DNA from: Waterburya sp. | GTDB lineage: Bacteria; Cyanobacteriota; Cyanobacteriia; Cyanobacteriales; Xenococcaceae | Assembly (NCBI GenBank): GCA_965217895.1 | Contig: CBDCJV010000002.1 | Location: 5,088,001 to 5,152,000 of the forward strand | Reading direction: 5' to 3' | Length of the DNA stretch: 64,000 nucleotides | Part shown: piece after piece, positions 53,839 through 64,000 of the stretch | How the letters are laid out: every line of letters begins with the position of its first letter | Numbering within the stretch: the first letter of the stretch is position 1 | Notes under the pieces: generated by a model | What the model saw: only the letters and a program-made list of their open reading frames with translations | Databases searched by the model: none | Told to the model about the DNA's origin: nothing | Translations under genes and position numbers: made by a program

Positions 53839-55471
53839 CCCTCTTTTGTCACTTTCCGAAACTTGAATTACAATAGAAAAAATTTTTAGAAGCTGAGAGA
53901 GAGAGAGGGCAATGGATGTAGAATTACAGATTCTCAACAGGCGAGTGGAATAAGCTCCCTAGACGGGAGCATTTCCTCGCCTCAAACATTTAAAGCGATC
54001 GCCAACATCTACGGTTTCCATAATAGATCGTTATTGCGACTCTTATAATGACTTGTTTTCTAATGACTTGTTTTCTGATGTCAGAAATTATGAATGTTTC
54101 AAATATTTACATCAAGGAATTATCTCATCAATCAAAAGAAAATCATTACCAGAGATAGCCAACTCGCGCGTTCCCTAGCGTCTTGAAAAGACGCGGGGTC
54201 GCTCGTCAAAGTAGTAGGAGTATCTTCATCTCAATCATTACATCATTTCGTAGCTAATTCACCTTGGTCAATAACAGAATTAAGAACTAGAAGATTAACT
54301 TTATTAACTTTAACTAAAAATACTTTAAAAGAACGAAAAATCACGTTGGTAATTGACGAAACAGGAGATAGAAAAAAAGGAAAGAAAACCGATTATGTAG
54401 CTAGGCAGTATTTGGGAAGCGTAGGCAAAATAGACAACGGTATAGTATCGGTAAATGCTTATGGTGTTTATGAGAATATAACTTTTCCTCTATTGTTTAA
54501 AATCTTCAAACCTAAAGGAACATTAAAAGAGTCAGATACTTACAAAACAAAGATTGAGTTAGCATCTTCTATCGTGACTGAGCTAATAGAATTCGGATTT
54601 AAAATTGGATTAGTATTAGCCGATAGTTTATATGGCGAAGCTAGTTCATTTATTAGAACATTGGAGAAATATCAACTACCTTGGGTTGTGGCAATTAGAA
54701 GCAATCATGGAGTCTGGCTGTCTCAAGAACAAAAGGTCAGAGCTAACAAATGGTGTAAATTTAAGAGAACTTTTAGCAACCAAAAAGCGGTGCGACCCCG
54801 CGCCGACGTAAGGCGCAAGGGAACGCGCACCAAGACATCTGAAATAAGGTATATCAGAGAAATAATTGATGGTCGAAGAAATCATAGAACTTATTGGGAA
54901 ATAACTACCGACCCTGAAACTATGCCAGAGAATTCCACTTCTTTTGTAATGACTAATATTCAGTTAAGTCGGAACAAAATGAAACAAACTTTAGGTAATC
55001 TATACGGAATGAGAACATGGGTAGAATATGGATTTCGGCAATGCAAACAAGAATTAGGATGGACTGATTATCGATTTACTAGTTTTCAGGAAATTAATAA
55101 GTGGTGGGAAATAATTTTTTCAGCTTACTGGATGGTCAGTTCCCATTCCAAAGTCTTCTGTGACTTAAATCAATCTCAGACTTTATCTACTTCCAAAATT
55201 CCAAGTGAAAAATTCATTCCTAATTTTAATCTTCATCAACAATGGTCAAACGAAGGGGGATGGAAAACGACCTTAAACAATTTACGTCTAATTATTCAAC
55301 CAACAATTGTATTCTGGATGATTATGCCCTGGTTAGATGTTTTTCCCAATCGTTCTTTGCTACTTGGTTTTCATCAACTCATTGCTGTCATGAATCAATT
55401 TTATTTTTCTTTTCCTGATGGATAGATTTTGTTTTTGCTATTTTTAAATCTCGGAAAGTGACATAAGAGGG
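53839..55471 (+). mobile_element. IS701-family insertion sequence (decayed)
   Basis: IRs ccctcttttgtcactttccga / tcggaaagtgacataagaggg; flanks CTAT and CTAA. Confidence 0.9.
53912..55425 (+). pseudogene. IS701-family transposase, disrupted
   Basis: MDVELQIL start, IDETGDRKKG, VARQYLG, LADSLYG, WVEYGFRQCKQELG; stop, frameshift, three hairpin inserts and a 15-nt duplication (54046-54075). Confidence 0.9.
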
Positions 55472-59259: not shown

Positions 59260-59270
59260 CTAATAACTTA

Positions 59271-59457
59271 AGTAGCAAGTAGCAGATAGCAGATAGCAAT
59301 GCTTTAAAGTAGTAATTAGCAGATAGCAGATAGCAATGCTTTAAAGTAGTAATTAGCAGATAGCAGATAGCAATGCTTTAAAGTAGCAAGTAGCAGATAG
59401 CAGATAGCAGATAGCAATGCTTTAAAGTAGTAATTAGCAATTAGCAGATAGCAATTA
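59271..59457 (+). repeat. Nested tandem repeat: TAGCA(G/A)N heptamers within ~37-nt units (4 copies)
   Basis: Unit tagcagatagcagatagcaatgctttaaagtagtaat repeated with no unique spacers. Confidence 0.9.
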
Positions 59458-59529
59458 AGAAAGTTCAAAATTTGCTACTTAAGTAAAGCTTGTCAATGAT
59501 AAAATTAAGTTACACAACTTAATTTTATC

Positions 59530-59750
59530 ATGAATAATCATAACATTTCGATACAAGATAGAACTAGAAATTTTGCGAATAGAGTAATAAAAGTCTATGT
59601 AGAATTAAACAAGAGAAAATACGATGATGCTGGTAAAGTTTTGTCTAAACAATTTCTTAGAAGTGGCACTAGCATTGGTGCAAACTGCTGTGAGGCTGAG
59701 TTCGCACAATCGAGAGCAGATTTTAGATCTAAACTAACTATTGCCTTAAA
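59530..59750 (+). pseudogene. Four-helix-bundle (IVS/Avd-like) protein, 5' half
   Basis: IQDRT..FA.RVI, LSKQFLRSGTSIGAN..EA..AQSRADF.SKL.IAL; the expected KEA.ET.YWL is replaced by unrelated sequence. Confidence 0.85.
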
Positions 59751-59874
59751 TTATATAACCCTCAATATTAATAATAAACAACAACAACAATGGTTGTATT
59801 TTTTTCTGTTGAGTAAAGTTACAATTACCCAAATTCTATATTCTTTTACGAGTATTATGGTGTATAGTTAATAC

Positions 59875-60969
59875 ATGATGCTCACACTACAGAAAGGAAC
59901 TGACCCACACACAAATAAAACCATCTGGATAATGCTGGATGAAGACTATCAGGTAATCGAACCGATACAGCGTTATTTGACTTCTTTATGCGCTACCAAG
60001 TCGCCTAATACTGTACAAGCCTATGGAACAGATTTAAAGCGATGGTGGGAATTTCTCGACCATAAGTGCTTGGATTGGCGTAATGTAAATATTCATCAGG
60101 ATTTAGAGGACTTTGCTTATTGGTTGAGAGTAGGAGATACAAAGGTGATTTCTCTACAGCCAGTAGAAGCCGATAGATCGGAGAAGACTATTAATAGAGC
60201 GATTACTGCTGTGTCAACTTTCTACGACTATCACCTGTGCAACCAAACAGTTGATTTTAGCGAGTTTGAGAGGTTTCATGCGATCTATAAAACGGGGAAC
60301 ACCAGAGTCGGTACGACAGGTATATTGACTGGTATTGCCAAAGCAAAACCAACCAGGGAAAAGTTAGTCAAACTCAAAGAAACTAAGAAATTCCCAGGCT
60401 GTCTGACCGATGAGCAAATAGAAACATTAGTTGATGCCTGTAGCAATCTTAGGGACAAGCTAATGATTCTGATGTTTAACGGAACTGGCATACGTAAAGG
60501 TGCGCTTTGTGGCTTAAAACACGAAGACGTTGGGGATTTTGGAGATTACTTTATTCGAGTAGTCAGAAGAGAAGACAACCCTAATGGAGCATTAGTTAAG
60601 ACAAAAGAGAGGACAATTCCAGTAACTAAGGAGCTGCTCCAACTATATGACGAGTACTTAATGAATGAGTATCCAGGCGTGGATTCAGAATATGTGTTTG
60701 TCAATATCTGGGAAGGGGATATCGGTGCGCCAATAATGCTGACATTGCCTAACAAAATACTTACAGGCTTGGAAGAAAAAACAGGTATTAGAGTTTATCC
60801 ACATTTATTTAGACATACTTATGCCACTCGTCTTTTGAAAGCGGGATATTCACCAGAGAGAGTCAAATATTTGTTGGGTCACGCTAGTATTGCTACCACT
60901 TTGGATGTCTATTCTCATGTCATCAACGAAACAAATCTATGGGAAGTAATCGAGAGAGAAGAAAAATGA
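59875..60969 (+). CDS. Tyrosine recombinase, Tn554 TnpA-like
   Basis: SPNTVQAY, GIRKGAL (R), PHLFRH, LLGH, LDVYSH. Confidence 0.9.
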   Translation: MMLTLQKGTDPHTNKTIWIMLDEDYQVIEPIQRYLTSLCATKSPNTVQAYGTDLKRWWEFLDHKCLDWRNVNIHQDLEDFAYWLRVGDTKVISLQPVEADRSEKTINRAITAVSTFYDYHLCNQTVDFSEFERFHAIYKTGNTRVGTTGILTGIAKAKPTREKLVKLKETKKFPGCLTDEQIETLVDACSNLRDKLMILMFNGTGIRKGALCGLKHEDVGDFGDYFIRVVRREDNPNGALVKTKERTIPVTKELLQLYDEYLMNEYPGVDSEYVFVNIWEGDIGAPIMLTLPNKILTGLEEKTGIRVYPHLFRHTYATRLLKAGYSPERVKYLLGHASIATTLDVYSHVINETNLWEVIEREEK

Positions 60970-62444
60970 GCTTAAATCAATTTGATTGGCTAGACGATTA
61001 TCAAGATCTATTTGAAGAAAAGCTACCGTCGCAATTATTATTAAATCCTCTGCTACAAAAAAATATATGGCATACAGTTAATGATTTAAACTTGAAGATT
61101 AGTCCGCATCAAAAAGTATGGACTCTTAACTTTCAGAGTATTTCTCAAGATTGGTTTAGACTTCTTGTCAAGCTATACATATTAGTCAAAGCCAAACCAA
61201 ATCAGCCTGGTAATACCATCAAAGGGTTTGTTATTTATTTGAGAGGATTCTCTAAGTTTTTAGACAAAAGAAATATTTACAGTCCCAAACATATAGATAA
61301 TCAAGTATTTGAAGAATTTGACTATTATCTAAAAGCTAAAGGGCTAAAAGATAGCTCTCTGGGACATTATCGAAGTACAATCTGCAATTTTTTCGATACC
61401 TGCCGTACTGAAGGATGGATTGATGTTAATACTTATTGGTTTAGAGGCAAGCGCAACAGAGTTCATGTTAACAACGATGAAGTTGACTACATTCCCGAAG
61501 AAGTTTGGCATCAACTAGAAGAAAATCTACATTACTTGCCAGAACCAGTACAGAGGATGATCCTGGTAATAAAAACAACAGGTATTCGAGGTGGCGAACT
61601 TTTAAATTTACCATTGGACTGTCTGAGGAAAAGAGGTAAGCAATGGAGGCTTCGTCTTACAACAGAGAAATACGACATTAAAGATGAAATACCAATAACT
61701 GTTCCAGAATTAGTTGCAGTAATTAAAGAACAACAAAAATACATAAAACAAATTTTCGGTGATAAATTTGATAATTTATTTTGTAGCAATCATCCTGGTC
61801 ATCATCGCAAAGATGGAACTCTTTCTTTTTCTCCTAACTCTAGTGTGATGAGTACAGGTACTTTTAACTTATGGCTGAATAGATTAGCCGAAAAAATTAA
61901 CATCCTTACTTCAGAAGGTGAAATCTACGAGTTTAAATCTCATCAATTTAGAAGGACAGTGGGTACTGTTATGACCAATGCAGGTGTCAGAGATTTAATT
62001 GCTCAAAAATATCTCAGACATCGTAGTCCAGATATGTTGCCCCATTATCAACATCTTCTTAAGCAAACATTAGGAGATGAATTTGAGGAGTTGATTAAGG
62101 ATAAAAAATATCATGATATATCGGGAAAAGTAGTCGAAATAATTAAAGGTAAAAATCCGATTACTGAATTTATTCGTCGCAAAATGTATCCTTTTACAAC
62201 CCAATACGGGGAATGCCATCGACCAATTTTAAAATCACCCTGTCAAACAGTTAATGCTTGCTGGAGATGCGAATATTGGCGAATAACCGATGGTGATTTG
62301 AATTATCTCAAAGAAGATTTTGCGAGAGTCGAGGAAGAATTAAAGGTAGCCAAAACACTTTCTATGACTAGGCAACAACAAGGATTAGAAGATGACAGGA
62401 ATAACTTAAGTGCGATTATTCAAGGTGTAGAAGAAAACAGATGA
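60966..62444 (+). CDS. Tyrosine recombinase, Tn554 TnpB-like
   Basis: TGIRGGEL, SHQFRRT, YLRH, PHYQH; C-terminal GEC..C..NACWRC Cys cluster and coiled coil. Confidence 0.88.
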   Translation: MSLNQFDWLDDYQDLFEEKLPSQLLLNPLLQKNIWHTVNDLNLKISPHQKVWTLNFQSISQDWFRLLVKLYILVKAKPNQPGNTIKGFVIYLRGFSKFLDKRNIYSPKHIDNQVFEEFDYYLKAKGLKDSSLGHYRSTICNFFDTCRTEGWIDVNTYWFRGKRNRVHVNNDEVDYIPEEVWHQLEENLHYLPEPVQRMILVIKTTGIRGGELLNLPLDCLRKRGKQWRLRLTTEKYDIKDEIPITVPELVAVIKEQQKYIKQIFGDKFDNLFCSNHPGHHRKDGTLSFSPNSSVMSTGTFNLWLNRLAEKINILTSEGEIYEFKSHQFRRTVGTVMTNAGVRDLIAQKYLRHRSPDMLPHYQHLLKQTLGDEFEELIKDKKYHDISGKVVEIIKGKNPITEFIRRKMYPFTTQYGECHRPILKSPCQTVNACWRCEYWRITDGDLNYLKEDFARVEEELKVAKTLSMTRQQQGLEDDRNNLSAIIQGVEENR

Positions 62445-64000
62445 TGGAAATAAATTGGTCTAGAGATTATCAGCATGAATTTATTTGTCCTCATTGCGAT
62501 ATTCAAGGTTTACGTTTAGCTGGCAAAGACAATTATACAAATAGGAAACTATTTAGATGCTCCAAATGTAGAAAAAGAATTTCTCAGTGTGTAAATATAA
62601 AATTTCCTAATAGTAATACTGGTATTAATTGGAACAAAGATTATAAAATAGGAGAGTTTGCTTGCCCCAATAAAGAATGTAATTCAAGGGATATCAGGCT
62701 TGCTAGCCAATCTAAAAAAAAGCAGCGTTTTACGTGTAATATTTGTGGAACTAAAACTAGAGAATCAATAGATCTTACGGAAAGCAATTTAGGTCAATAT
62801 GCTCATAAAAGACCAGTTAAGCCATTTTCTTTTCAAGACGATAAATGGGATATTAGGGCAATTAAATCACCAGCAAATAAACAAGAGAAGATTCTAATTG
62901 CTAACTTTCATACTGTAAAAACAAACTGGTTTAGAAATTTAACCAAGCACTACACATACCACCTCTGTAAGCTCAATAAACCTATAGGTGCAATTGAGTA
63001 TCATTTGATTAATCTTCGTATTTTTTCTCGGTATTTAGTAGAGAAAAATATAACTAATATAAATTTAATTAGCCGAAGTTTAATTCTTGATTTTCTCGCT
63101 TGGGATAATACGGGTGTAGACGCTACCAGAAAAAGACTCTCGACACTTAGAGATTTCTTCTGGACTGGTAATGTGCAGAATTGGTTTGTACTTGACCCAG
63201 ATCTTGTAAGAGATAATGATTATCCTAAAGCGAAGGTAAGCAATCCTGACCCAATACCAGATAGCGTTCGAGAACAGATTGAAAGCAATTTACATAAGCT
63301 ACCAGAGCCTATTGCTAGAATGTGGATTATTGCTTTTTTCACAGCAATGCGACCTGGAGAACTAGCTTTATTAAAGAAAGGCTGTTTGGTACAAGAGGGT
63401 AGCCACTGGAGCATTACTTGGCAACGTGGAAAAAACCGAGATTTTCACACAGTTCCAATTACAAGAATCATTGCCAAAGTAGTTCAAGAACAGCAGGATT
63501 ACATAGAGCAATTATGGGGAACTGAATGGGATTACTTGTTTTGTCATTATCAGCGACCTTCAAGCACAAGGCAATATAGCAATATAGATCCTGTTCAAAA
63601 AGTAATACCGAAAAATAATAGCCTGTTTTATGGAGCGATTGAATATCTAATCGAAACAGAAGATATTCGGGATGATAATGGTAAGTTAGCGACATTTAGT
63701 CCACATTTAATTAGGCATACACGCCTAACTCAATTATTTGAGCAAGGACACGACTTGTCAGTAGTTAGTGCATGGGCTGGACACAAAAGATTGGCAACAA
63801 CGAGTAATTTTTACACTCAAGTTAGTTGTGAACTAATTGAAAAAGAAGCAGGTCATATTCAAAAAGCTCTGTTTAATGCAGATGGTCAATACCATCAATA
63901 TGAATCATTACCTAAATCCTTCTGGAAAGATCCTCAAGCTCATAAATTAGATCTTCCTGGCGACCATATTAACACACCTATTTATGGCTACTGTGGGCTA
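62441..64000 (+). CDS. Tyrosine recombinase, TnpB-like, with two N-terminal zinc-ribbon repeats (partial, absent from the ORF track)
   Basis: Manual translation is open to the window end: CPHC/CSKC and CPNKEC/CNIC; AMRPGEL, SPHLIRH, WAGH, SNFY, YGYCGL. Confidence 0.88.
   Translation, partial: MMEINWSRDYQHEFICPHCDIQGLRLAGKDNYTNRKLFRCSKCRKRISQCVNIKFPNSNTGINWNKDYKIGEFACPNKECNSRDIRLASQSKKKQRFTCNICGTKTRESIDLTESNLGQYAHKRPVKPFSFQDDKWDIRAIKSPANKQEKILIANFHTVKTNWFRNLTKHYTYHLCKLNKPIGAIEYHLINLRIFSRYLVEKNITNINLISRSLILDFLAWDNTGVDATRKRLSTLRDFFWTGNVQNWFVLDPDLVRDNDYPKAKVSNPDPIPDSVREQIESNLHKLPEPIARMWIIAFFTAMRPGELALLKKGCLVQEGSHWSITWQRGKNRDFHTVPITRIIAKVVQEQQDYIEQLWGTEWDYLFCHYQRPSSTRQYSNIDPVQKVIPKNNSLFYGAIEYLIETEDIRDDNGKLATFSPHLIRHTRLTQLFEQGHDLSVVSAWAGHKRLATTSNFYTQVSCELIEKEAGHIQKALFNADGQYHQYESLPKSFWKDPQAHKLDLPGDHINTPIYGYCGL

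Follow-up and report, generated by a model that had tools for sequence, protein, structure and literature searches.

The window (the whole stretch of 64,000 nucleotides that was analysed) contains the left part of a transposon of 8,868 bp that interrupts a four-helix-bundle gene and extends past the window end. It encodes, in this order, a TnpA-like and two TnpB-like tyrosine recombinases (T1, T2, and T3), a TnpC/DUF6262 protein (T4), a DnaB helicase, and an ATPase cargo. Our reading, to which we give a probability of about 0.62, is that of a Tn554-family transposon with a duplicated tnpB, where T1 holds the ends of the element and T2 and T3 read two unlike arms of the target. Van Houdt et al. 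found it hard to see why three recombinases are needed to exchange four strands, and described the roles of TnpA and TnpB in Tn554 as not established (PMC3414803). The present family makes this puzzle testable, since forms with two and with three recombinases exist in it, together with identical copies that were active recently and dozens of mapped targets.

A Tn554-family transposon with three recombinases

The element spans positions 59751-68618 and is tripartite, with an operon, then the cargo, then an AT-rich 3' end (Table 1). The four-helix reading frame breaks at 59750/59751, exactly where an earlier note on this DNA had placed the break. The tnpC-like gene, the cargo, and the missing 3' half (with its KEASETRYW motif), which that note had proposed to look for downstream, are all present. 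The terminal inverted repeat is imperfect, the left TTAT end matching the right end at 9 of 11 positions. The element has a GC content of 35.2%, against 39.1% for the chromosome. The absence of HIP1 (GCGATCGC) from its DNA, also claimed earlier, extends to the full 8,868 bp (0 copies vs. 1.11 per kb on the chromosome), and only 2 of 587 windows of equal size are free of this motif.

Table 1. Features of the element and its surroundings. Coordinates beyond 64,000 are counted on from the window (they equal G000:C2 minus 5,088,000; those of locus L001 are minus 57,000).
Feature	Position	Strand	Remarks
Heptamer repeat array (AGCAGAT-type), family D1, inverted pairs I1-I8	59270..59457	+	Outside the transposon
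Four-helix-bundle gene, 5' half, 73 codons	59530..59750	+	PF05635 / TIGR02436 match stops at residue 73
Target spacer CTTAAA, last 6 nt of the 5' half	59745-59750	+
Left end of the element	59751..59790	+	TTAT terminus and ACAACAACAAC run at 59778, kept across relatives
T1, TnpA-like tyrosine recombinase, 364 aa	59875-60969	+	35-40% to Tn554-family TnpA, nearly full length
T2, TnpB-like recombinase, 492 aa	60966-62444	+	C-terminal Cys cluster
T3, second TnpB-like recombinase, 592 aa	62441-64219	+	Two N-terminal zinc ribbons; window cuts at 64000
T4, TnpC-like DUF6262 protein, 281 aa	64216-65061		Beyond window; helical extension and tail
DnaB helicase, 439 aa	65054-66373		Beyond window
HATPase_c-type cargo, 681 aa	66498-68543		Beyond window; cargo segment 29.9% GC
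Right end of the element	68544-68618		Beyond window; terminates in ATAA
6-bp footprint TTTAAA	68619-68624		Beyond window; 3' of the right end
Four-helix gene, 3' half, in frame	68625-68766		Beyond window
Inverted heptamer array	68764-68809		Beyond window

The recombinase genes are linked by ATGA overlaps, and relatives show no variation in the catalytic residues R, K, second R, H, and Y (41/41 for T1, 41/41 for T2, and 32/32 for T3). The earlier description of three coupled recombinases with R, HxxR, H, and Y motifs thus stands, save for one residue: the His of HxxR in T3 is found in this copy only (1/32), most relatives having K or R, and hence is not a conserved catalytic residue. The number of zinc ribbons in T3 also differs among relatives. 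T4 matches PF19776 at 47.8 bits (cut-off 29); the NCBIfam effector names that it attracted were discarded as coiled-coil noise, far under the cut-off. Compared with PDB and BFVD, the fold of the T4 extension gave nothing that reached E<=0.001, the hits being weak ones to DnaD-like or phage replication proteins. Atlas scores were 0.81-0.84 (under the 0.9 line), and a wide search was filled by the coiled coil. We take the DnaD-likeness as a lead only. Across 62 proteins, of which 9 were assigned by eye, the type of T4 tail splits with dnaB, 37 to 25. Because 25 of the 62 relatives lack dnaB, and the tree calls for 8 or more changes in it, the gene is not required. The cargo matched no PADLOC or NCBIfam family.

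To place the element, we compared its proteins with profiles of the Tn554 family (Tn554, Tn558, Tn6188, the lnu(G) element in NZ_CP075898, and the actinobacterial relatives described in Van Houdt 2012, PMC3414803). T1 scored 274-305 bits with TnpA, T2 and T3 126-204 and 87-155 bits with TnpB, and T4 51-75 bits with TnpC. We are therefore nearly certain that this is a Tn554-family variant, in agreement with the earlier proposal of a Tn554-like element with one TnpA-like and two TnpB-like genes. With three tyrosine recombinases and a four-helix target, instead of two recombinases and radC, it is filed as a variant rather than as a canonical member. The shared traits are the order TnpA, TnpB, TnpC (DUF6262), overlapping genes, cargo after tnpC, insertion in a conserved gene, and a footprint of 6 bp that comes from the left flank of the donor; identities are 35-40% for TnpA (over 342-358 aa), 24-27% for TnpB, and 35-38% for TnpC. 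The differences are the two tnpB genes in place of one, the zinc ribbons of T3, a TnpC longer by about 150 aa, the DnaB, a four-helix target instead of radC/JAB, the cyanobacterial host, and the many different targets across the element's family.

Three integrase-like genes with a small helper could also have indicated a RIT element, a GInt, or an SE (strand-biased circularising integrative element). GInts (Bardaji 2017, PMC5385486) likewise have three integrase-like genes, a small TnpC-like (coiled-coil) gene, cargo, and an AT-rich right end; they use a 6-nt staggered exchange, with different families at different sites. SEs (Idola 2023, PMC10214605) share four core genes and the 6-bp fingerprint/footprint rule, and RIT elements (PMC3414803) share three overlapping tyrosine recombinase genes, all with catalytic motifs. 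Yet the proteins of the references used (one GInt, one SE, and two RIT trios) reach at most 37 bits, against 51-305 for TnpA/B/C, and our genes group with the latter instead of with RitA/B/C. In the E. coli GInt (L333), GinA scored 37 bits and GinB/C at most 15, GinD was not among the matches listed, and there is no significant homology outside the generic tyrosine recombinase core. In the SE (L331), IntA, Tfp, IntB, and Srap scored at most 13 bits, and the best score of the RIT trios, both from pHG1 (L334), was 37. R-K-R-H-Y is kept in all three of our recombinases, unlike in GinC, which lacks catalytic residues, or in the SE Tfp, which is non-catalytic. As far as sequence comparison goes, GInts and this element are independent routes to a trio. 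SEs are gammaproteobacterial, and their described core genes include no helicase. RIT elements are about 3.5 kb long, with proteins of 315-410 aa, terminal inverted repeats of 28-34 bp, and no tnpC, whereas ours has 8.9 kb, a T2 and T3 of 492 and 592 aa, an 11-bp imperfect repeat, and a DUF6262 gene. These assignments are thus largely refuted.

Insertion sites and footprints

We identified five identical copies of the 8,868-bp element (0 mismatches) in 3 of 39 genomes of the genus. All five lie at one codon of four-helix genes, the IAxK codon, in one orientation and in three different paralogs. One genome (G019) carries three copies at distant sites, each in a different paralog and all at this codon; two of these paralogs share just 45-48% protein identity with the window's gene. 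The same four-helix codon is occupied in an independent metagenome contig (L091, T1 92%). For comparison, sister elements with TnpA 85-95% identical are located in tnpB, recD, or integrase genes; the relatives' own conserved target genes are tnpB, recD, photolyase, and cas1, and many of their targets are mobile or accessory genes. The four-helix target is confined to this lineage, since relatives each use their own conserved gene. Hence, the idea in the earlier note of a multicopy four-helix gene as target holds for the five copies and three paralogs but not family-wide, and tabulating the insertion sites of homologous trios placed all 5 identical copies in four-helix genes and the sisters elsewhere. 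One target label (L042) is doubtful, as a group II intron RT forms the left flank, and this locus was left out of the arm correlations with one element per target gene, with the T3 core-binding domain, and in the control windows.

There is no target duplication. The right-end 6-bp footprint is derived from the donor's left flank, as in Tn554, and left and right hexamers are unlike in 28 of 46 loci. In multi-copy sets (8 sets, 20 copies), the right hexamer differs from the copy's own left one in 13 of 20 cases; eight of these 13 equal the left hexamer of a sibling, and the other five occur one per set. Such footprint chains were seen again in six unrelated sets. The right-end hexamer is taken from the donor site, and the transposon is recently mobile. 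In viral contigs, the 80 matches listed were to distant integrases, the best of which reached 32% over the protein and one of which had 56% over a 48-aa segment; they do not point to a phage form.

The left target arm tracks the core-binding domain of T2

The three-recombinase state arose once (1 change on the T1 tree of 49 elements). The identity to a tnpB-targeting sister (L036) is 92% for T1, 82% for T4, and 85% for DnaB, but only 52% for T2 and 59% for T3. T2 is instead 71-72% identical to that of L040 and L095, though the T1 of these elements is just 67-69% identical; neither has a four-helix target. AU tests gave p=5e-8 and 1e-80, the former in support of a foreign origin of recombinase 2. 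Judging from these protein comparisons, the element is a mosaic, with a T2 swapped in from another lineage. Among pairs with T1 at least 85% identical, the mean identities of core-binding and catalytic domains are 90/90% for T1 and 50/73% for T2 (40 pairs), and 49/71% for T3 (29 pairs). In enzymes of this class, however, it is common for the core-binding domain to vary more than the catalytic one.

The left target arm tracks the core-binding domain of T2 and not TnpA. In Mantel tests, where shared ancestry stays in the signal, its similarity correlates with the identity of this domain (r=0.28, and 0.26 with T1 controlled for; p=0.001, n=41), whereas the correlation with T1, partial on T2, is 0.03 (p=0.22). 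The former is also found when each target gene contributes a single element (r=0.20, p=0.001, n=31), and the T2 domain given that of T3 yields 0.24, against -0.03 for the converse (n=32). In control windows 15-30 nt away, the T2 signal persists with r of 0.07-0.12. The right arm correlated weakly with T3 before de-duplication (partial r 0.146, p=0.01, n=21) but not significantly after it (0.105, p=0.077, n=18), nor with the core-binding domain of T3 (0.087, p=0.11). For the left end of the element itself, the correlation is with T1 (partial 0.36, p=0.0005, n=21), an association that may reflect physical linkage. The natural chimeras point to T2 and T3 as the target readers, and these two probably set the target. 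Palindromic targets in two-recombinase relatives were considered and rejected: they occur in 1 of 6 (4, 3, 3, 4, 10, and 1 matches of 13), and targets of three-recombinase elements have a mean of 2.8 matches of 13 (n=26).

Alternative explanations and proposed mechanism

The same Tn554-family element might have a loose target, or one set by T1 or T4: a short degenerate site would then suffice, four-helix and other dispensable multicopy genes would be where copies survive, insertions elsewhere having been purged, and T2 and T3 would vary through relaxed constraint or escape from host defence. In line with this, G000 contains between 22 and 104 occurrences of the shorter invariant patterns, a matching four-helix paralog of that genome (C2:1874654) is empty, many target genes are mobile or accessory, and the correlations are modest (r 0.2-0.3). 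Still, we consider it unlikely, because selection would not fix a codon as constant as that shared by the distant copies in G019, and T1 has no explanatory share once T2 is held. A more technical concern is that faulty assembly accounts in part for the identical copies, the hexamer pairings, and an inversion in G020, given that the carriers may come from one sample and have a 9-kb repeat in common. Coverage of the element in one run is about 1,465-1,580-fold, compared with about 230-fold for single flank contigs, and there are several flank alleles; the ratio was the same in another run of this sample. However, the carriers are assemblies of 1-2 contigs with distinct flanks, the 3' half beyond each copy matches the paralog in which that copy sits, and neither the footprint chains in unrelated sets nor the independent contig L091 fit an artefact, which makes this very unlikely.

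Finally, the element could be a programmed interruption whose excision on cue switches the four-helix gene on, as heterocyst xis elements are programmed interruption elements. Removing the element with one hexamer does leave a frame that is open and, at the same motif, agrees with intact natural alleles, and precise excision, as suggested in the earlier note, restores the gene on paper. Neither an empty site nor a circle junction was seen among contigs of three sequencing runs, although contigs drop rare forms, and one target (L034) also has a nonsense codon; programmed restoration is therefore unlikely. Identical copies multiply over paralogs and species, and sister elements use unrelated genes. 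SEs, which have the same footprint, are proposed to copy out and leave no empty site (PMC10214605). On balance, we find a programmed interruption highly improbable. No RNA run carrying the element was among the matches listed for sequencing runs, which cannot show absence.

Under our preferred reading of T2 and T3 as target readers, T1 (TnpA) is predicted to bind both element ends, and T2 and T3 would read the left and the right arm, respectively, the signal for T3 being weak. By analogy with Tn554 and SEs, the element would exit in circular form, taking along the 6 bp that lie left of the donor, and integrate via a 6-bp staggered tyrosine-recombinase exchange. A landing site picked by a swappable extra pair of recombinases would explain why three are carried, and swap or drift of T2 and T3 would result in retargeting. 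The tail of T4 may recruit the element's own DnaB for copy-out, a step that we regard as possible at somewhat less than even odds. More tentatively still, and with doubt prevailing, the element could be a naturally reprogrammable integrase: the duplication of tnpB would have produced a heterodimeric reader, each core-binding domain reading one arm of an asymmetric site, a T2-T3 swap would move the target among tnpB, four-helix, recD, photolyase, and cas1 genes, and a swappable TnpC tail would load DnaB to replicate the element out of the donor. If T2 and T3 are indeed the target readers, the family would offer, as a natural library, core-binding domains along with the asymmetric DNA sites that they match, with up to several kb of cargo, a property sought by engineered recombinase heterodimers. 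Should the reading of T2 and T3 be wrong, this would still be a well-delimited cyanobacterial Tn554 variant; the literature searched, largely without subscription journals, yielded no cyanobacterial or three-recombinase Tn554 element and no insertion in a four-helix gene. The transposon lives inside a gene cassette that was itself recently inserted, that of the four-helix gene, whose left border is the heptamer array upstream.

Boundaries, gene content and copies of the element

In the window (G000:C2:5088001-5152000, part of a cyanobacterial chromosome), the four-helix-bundle frame breaks at 59750/59751, as the earlier note had read it: the profile matches stop there and the frame continues into unrelated DNA. 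Three tyrosine recombinase genes, T1 (TnpA-like), T2 and T3 (both TnpB-like), come next, joined by ATGA overlaps. Of the catalytic motifs recognised in that note, R, H and Y (together with K and the second R) are invariant in 41/41 T1, 41/41 T2 and 32/32 T3 relatives, but the His of the T3 HxxR is present in only 1 of 32. The reported lack of HIP1 extends to the whole 8,868 bp, a property of 2 of 587 equal-sized chromosome windows. Reading on beyond the window yielded the tnpC-like gene (T4), the cargo and the missing 3' half that the note had advised looking for.

Features of the element and its surroundings (positions in the window; those above 64000 are counted on beyond its end)
Feature	Position	Remarks
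DDE transposase (DDE_5)	54346-55425	~4 kb upstream, no relation to the element
Four-helix gene halves with their inverted heptamer arrays	59270-59750; 68625-68809	arrays flank the gene; second stretch beyond window
Four-helix ORF, 5' half	start 59530	matches PF05635 and TIGR02436 as far as residue 73
T3 N-terminal zinc ribbons	62441-62830	
DUF6262/TnpC-like gene (T4)	64216-65061	beyond window
dnaB	65054-66373	TIGR00665, over cut-off; beyond window
HATPase-type cargo gene	66498-68543 (= L001:9498-11543)	681 aa; beyond window
Right end of element	68618	beyond window
Four-helix gene, 3' half	directly after 68618	

When the element and one hexamer are removed in silico, the frame of the four-helix gene is open, and uninterrupted natural alleles (L244, L257, L239 and L338) run through the same IA[LY]KE motif. 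On paper, precise excision would restore the gene, as had been proposed. Three of the 39 genomes of the genus carry complete copies without a single mismatch: the host (G000) has one, G020 one and G019 three. The element is real, sharply bounded and was recently mobile.

The cargo has low GC, a HATPase_c domain and an atlas score of 1.00, and belongs to a widespread family without a name. It matched none of the PADLOC models; a function in defence is possible. The number of T3 zinc ribbons is highly variable, from 2 to 10 Cys pairs (L045, L077, L075, L078), and differs even among near-identical elements (T3 of 588 aa in L071, 668 aa in L072).

We compared the 6-bp spacers at 46 loci with both ends, after removing 4 duplicates and 2 doubtful rows. 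The left hexamer differs from the right at 28 of them. Eight multi-copy sets hold 20 copies, 13 of which have differing hexamers; in 8 of these 13 the right hexamer is the left hexamer of a sibling, and the other five fall one per set, as expected of founders. Since siblings have a common target consensus, chance matching exceeds that of random hexamers. The rule is the one given for Tn554 and SEs in PMC10214605. The window copy has CTTAAA on the left and TTTAAA on the right, the latter being the left hexamer of L034 in G019. In run X1 the depth of the element is ~1,465-1,580, against ~230 for single flank contigs. The carrier genomes may share a sample, so the match with L034 may have come from wrong phasing during assembly.

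Affiliation with the Tn554 family

T1 scored 274-305 bits against TnpA profiles, T2 and T3 scored 126-204 and 87-155 bits against TnpB profiles, and T4 scored 51-75 bits against TnpC. This bears out the earlier assignment to a Tn554-like element with three recombinases as a variant. An identity as RIT, GInt or SE, whose proteins reached at most 37 bits (references: one GInt, one SE and two RIT trios, with reference coordinates from PMC10214605), was rejected on this comparison, and the grouping with RitA/B/C that the note had set against its own reading is absent for the two trios. The comparison also draws on PMC3414803, PMC8138268, PMC3788773 and PMC9881144. A quick tree from the T1 proteins of 49 elements explains the three-recombinase state by one change (39 rows, SH-aLRT 100), its clade being nested within two-recombinase cyanobacterial relatives; the presence or absence of dnaB needs 8 changes. 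The predicted T3 model gives fold matches to XerH, IntI, Tn1549 Int and Cre. From the profile scores and the T1 tree, we infer that the element is a Tn554 variant arisen through tnpB duplication. Its layout resembles that of GInt, as described in PMC5385486, which we read as convergence. A literature search, with subscription journals mostly outside its coverage, found no account of this variant; its make-up is new relative to the literature searched.

Targets across the family

Four genome searches with differing cut-offs found T1 relatives in 18/61, 23/401, 12/401 and 17/389 genomes, and metagenomes added 59 loci. A conserved motif served to locate left ends, some of which were set by eye, and a profile to locate right ends. 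In 28 of the 50 rows that have both ends mapped (duplicates counted, no chance control), a frame over the insertion site continues without a stop through at least 85 of 100 codons. Half of the left-flank frames scanned (17/34) have a Pfam match: IS605 tnpB in 5, RecD-like in 3, integrase in 2, and four-helix, photolyase, Cas1, group II RT, CoiA, PF12747 and DUF4261 in one apiece. Thus, the conserved target is specific to each lineage. The four-helix gene, put forward earlier as the target, holds for the lineage of the window element but not for the whole family. Motifs in other targets point tentatively to products such as a DNA methyltransferase or endonuclease V.

Genes for Cas1, photolyase and RecD-like proteins are broken at conserved motifs by relatives L104, L086, L078/L079, L125 and L089. 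Two family members of different lineages stand head to head in L039 (G026:C26:30000-47000) and in L054, with their dnaB genes facing, and two lie in tandem in L060. In L042 a group II intron RT adjoins the left end and the right flank reads as tnpB, which suggests insertions stacked at one site.

Within the window lineage, the five identical copies occupy one codon, in one orientation, always in four-helix genes. Two of the G019 targets are paralogs with just 45-48% protein identity to the window's gene. The multicopy target suspected in the note is borne out. The metagenome element L091 (T1 92% identical) sits at the same codon. The sister L053 (T1 92%) is in a four-helix gene at another conserved motif, SIGA (L053:8740-8901), on a contig that stops short of readable T2/T3. 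Loose contig ends point to a further four-helix target. The host genome has five PF05635 matches: two halves of the window gene, one without the motif, one unread, and one motif-bearing and empty. The pattern invariant among occupied paralogs occurs once there, in this empty paralog (a partly circular result), and shorter versions 22-104 times.

The target may itself be mobile. Between the same flanking genes (DUF3769 and a response regulator), the four-helix gene is missing from G017 and G023 and likewise at one contig joint; its cassette is inverted in G020, and carriers share 98% identity in this gene against 92% in the flanking gene (loci compared with the window include L032, L261 and L262). 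Hence, the cassette likely arrived recently. Many other four-helix paralogs (L228-L257; G000, G019, G020, G023 and G028) adjoin short heptamer arrays. At some of them the arrays face each other from either side of the gene, most plainly in L257, and several of these paralogs are broken up or frameshifted.

Recombinase mosaicism, target arms and the T4 tail

Compared with L036, a tnpB-targeting sister, identity is 92% for T1, 82% for T4 and 85% for DnaB, but 52% for T2 and 59% for T3. T2 shares 71-72% identity with its counterparts in L040 and L095, whose T1 reaches 67-69%. The element is a mosaic. Gene trees of 26 chosen rows (the T2 tree a quick one) conflict with each other, and AU tests, with groups defined from identity values after the trees were inspected, reject both cross-groupings (p=5e-8 and 1e-80). 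In 40 pairs with T1 at least 85% identical, core-binding domains (limits from Pfam and by eye) share 90% identity in T1, 50% in T2 and 49% in T3.

Target arms, the DNA either side of the spacer, are not inherited along with the element, and a link between arm and gene is therefore informative. After 17 loci with doubtful or missing ends had been left out, 64 elements with left end, T1 and T2 were de-duplicated to 41. The p values are not corrected for the various window sizes and domains examined, and the Mantel tests retain shared ancestry. Over the 12 nt on the left side of the spacer, target sequence correlates with identity in the T2 core-binding domain (r=0.28; with T1 held constant 0.26, p=0.001, n=41) and not with T1 given T2 (partial 0.03, p=0.22, n=41). 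The link persists with one element per target gene (r=0.20, p=0.001, n=31), favours T2 over T3 (partial 0.24 vs -0.03, n=32), and is weaker yet present 15-45 nt off. The right arm only leans towards T3 after de-duplication, without significance (n=18, p 0.08-0.11). The element's left end tracks T1, which could reflect physical linkage. In the simplest reading, the four half-sites would be served by T1, T1, T2 and T3; palindromic targets for two-recombinase forms, a corollary, failed (1/6). Computational support for such a retargeting model is moderate and concerns one arm; the model is open to direct test.

In T4, a coiled coil follows the DUF6262 domain and leads to a helical bundle, which has weak DnaD-like leads only, and to a tail. 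Among 62 distinct T4 proteins (53 classed by script, 9 by eye), 37 have a short helical tail together with dnaB, whereas the other 25 lack dnaB and end in another type of tail. This count does not support dnaB as a core gene of the family. Tail and dnaB move jointly, even to distant T4 (L316: T4 33%, DnaB 83%). This fits a tail that would recruit DnaB; mere adjacency also fits the co-occurrence. Replicative movement of the element may be hypothesised. The host genome holds two more dnaB-like loci, G000:C2:4239719-4241055 and 296435-299221; in the latter, ~1.5 kb separates the two matching parts, a spacing that an intein or an insertion would produce.
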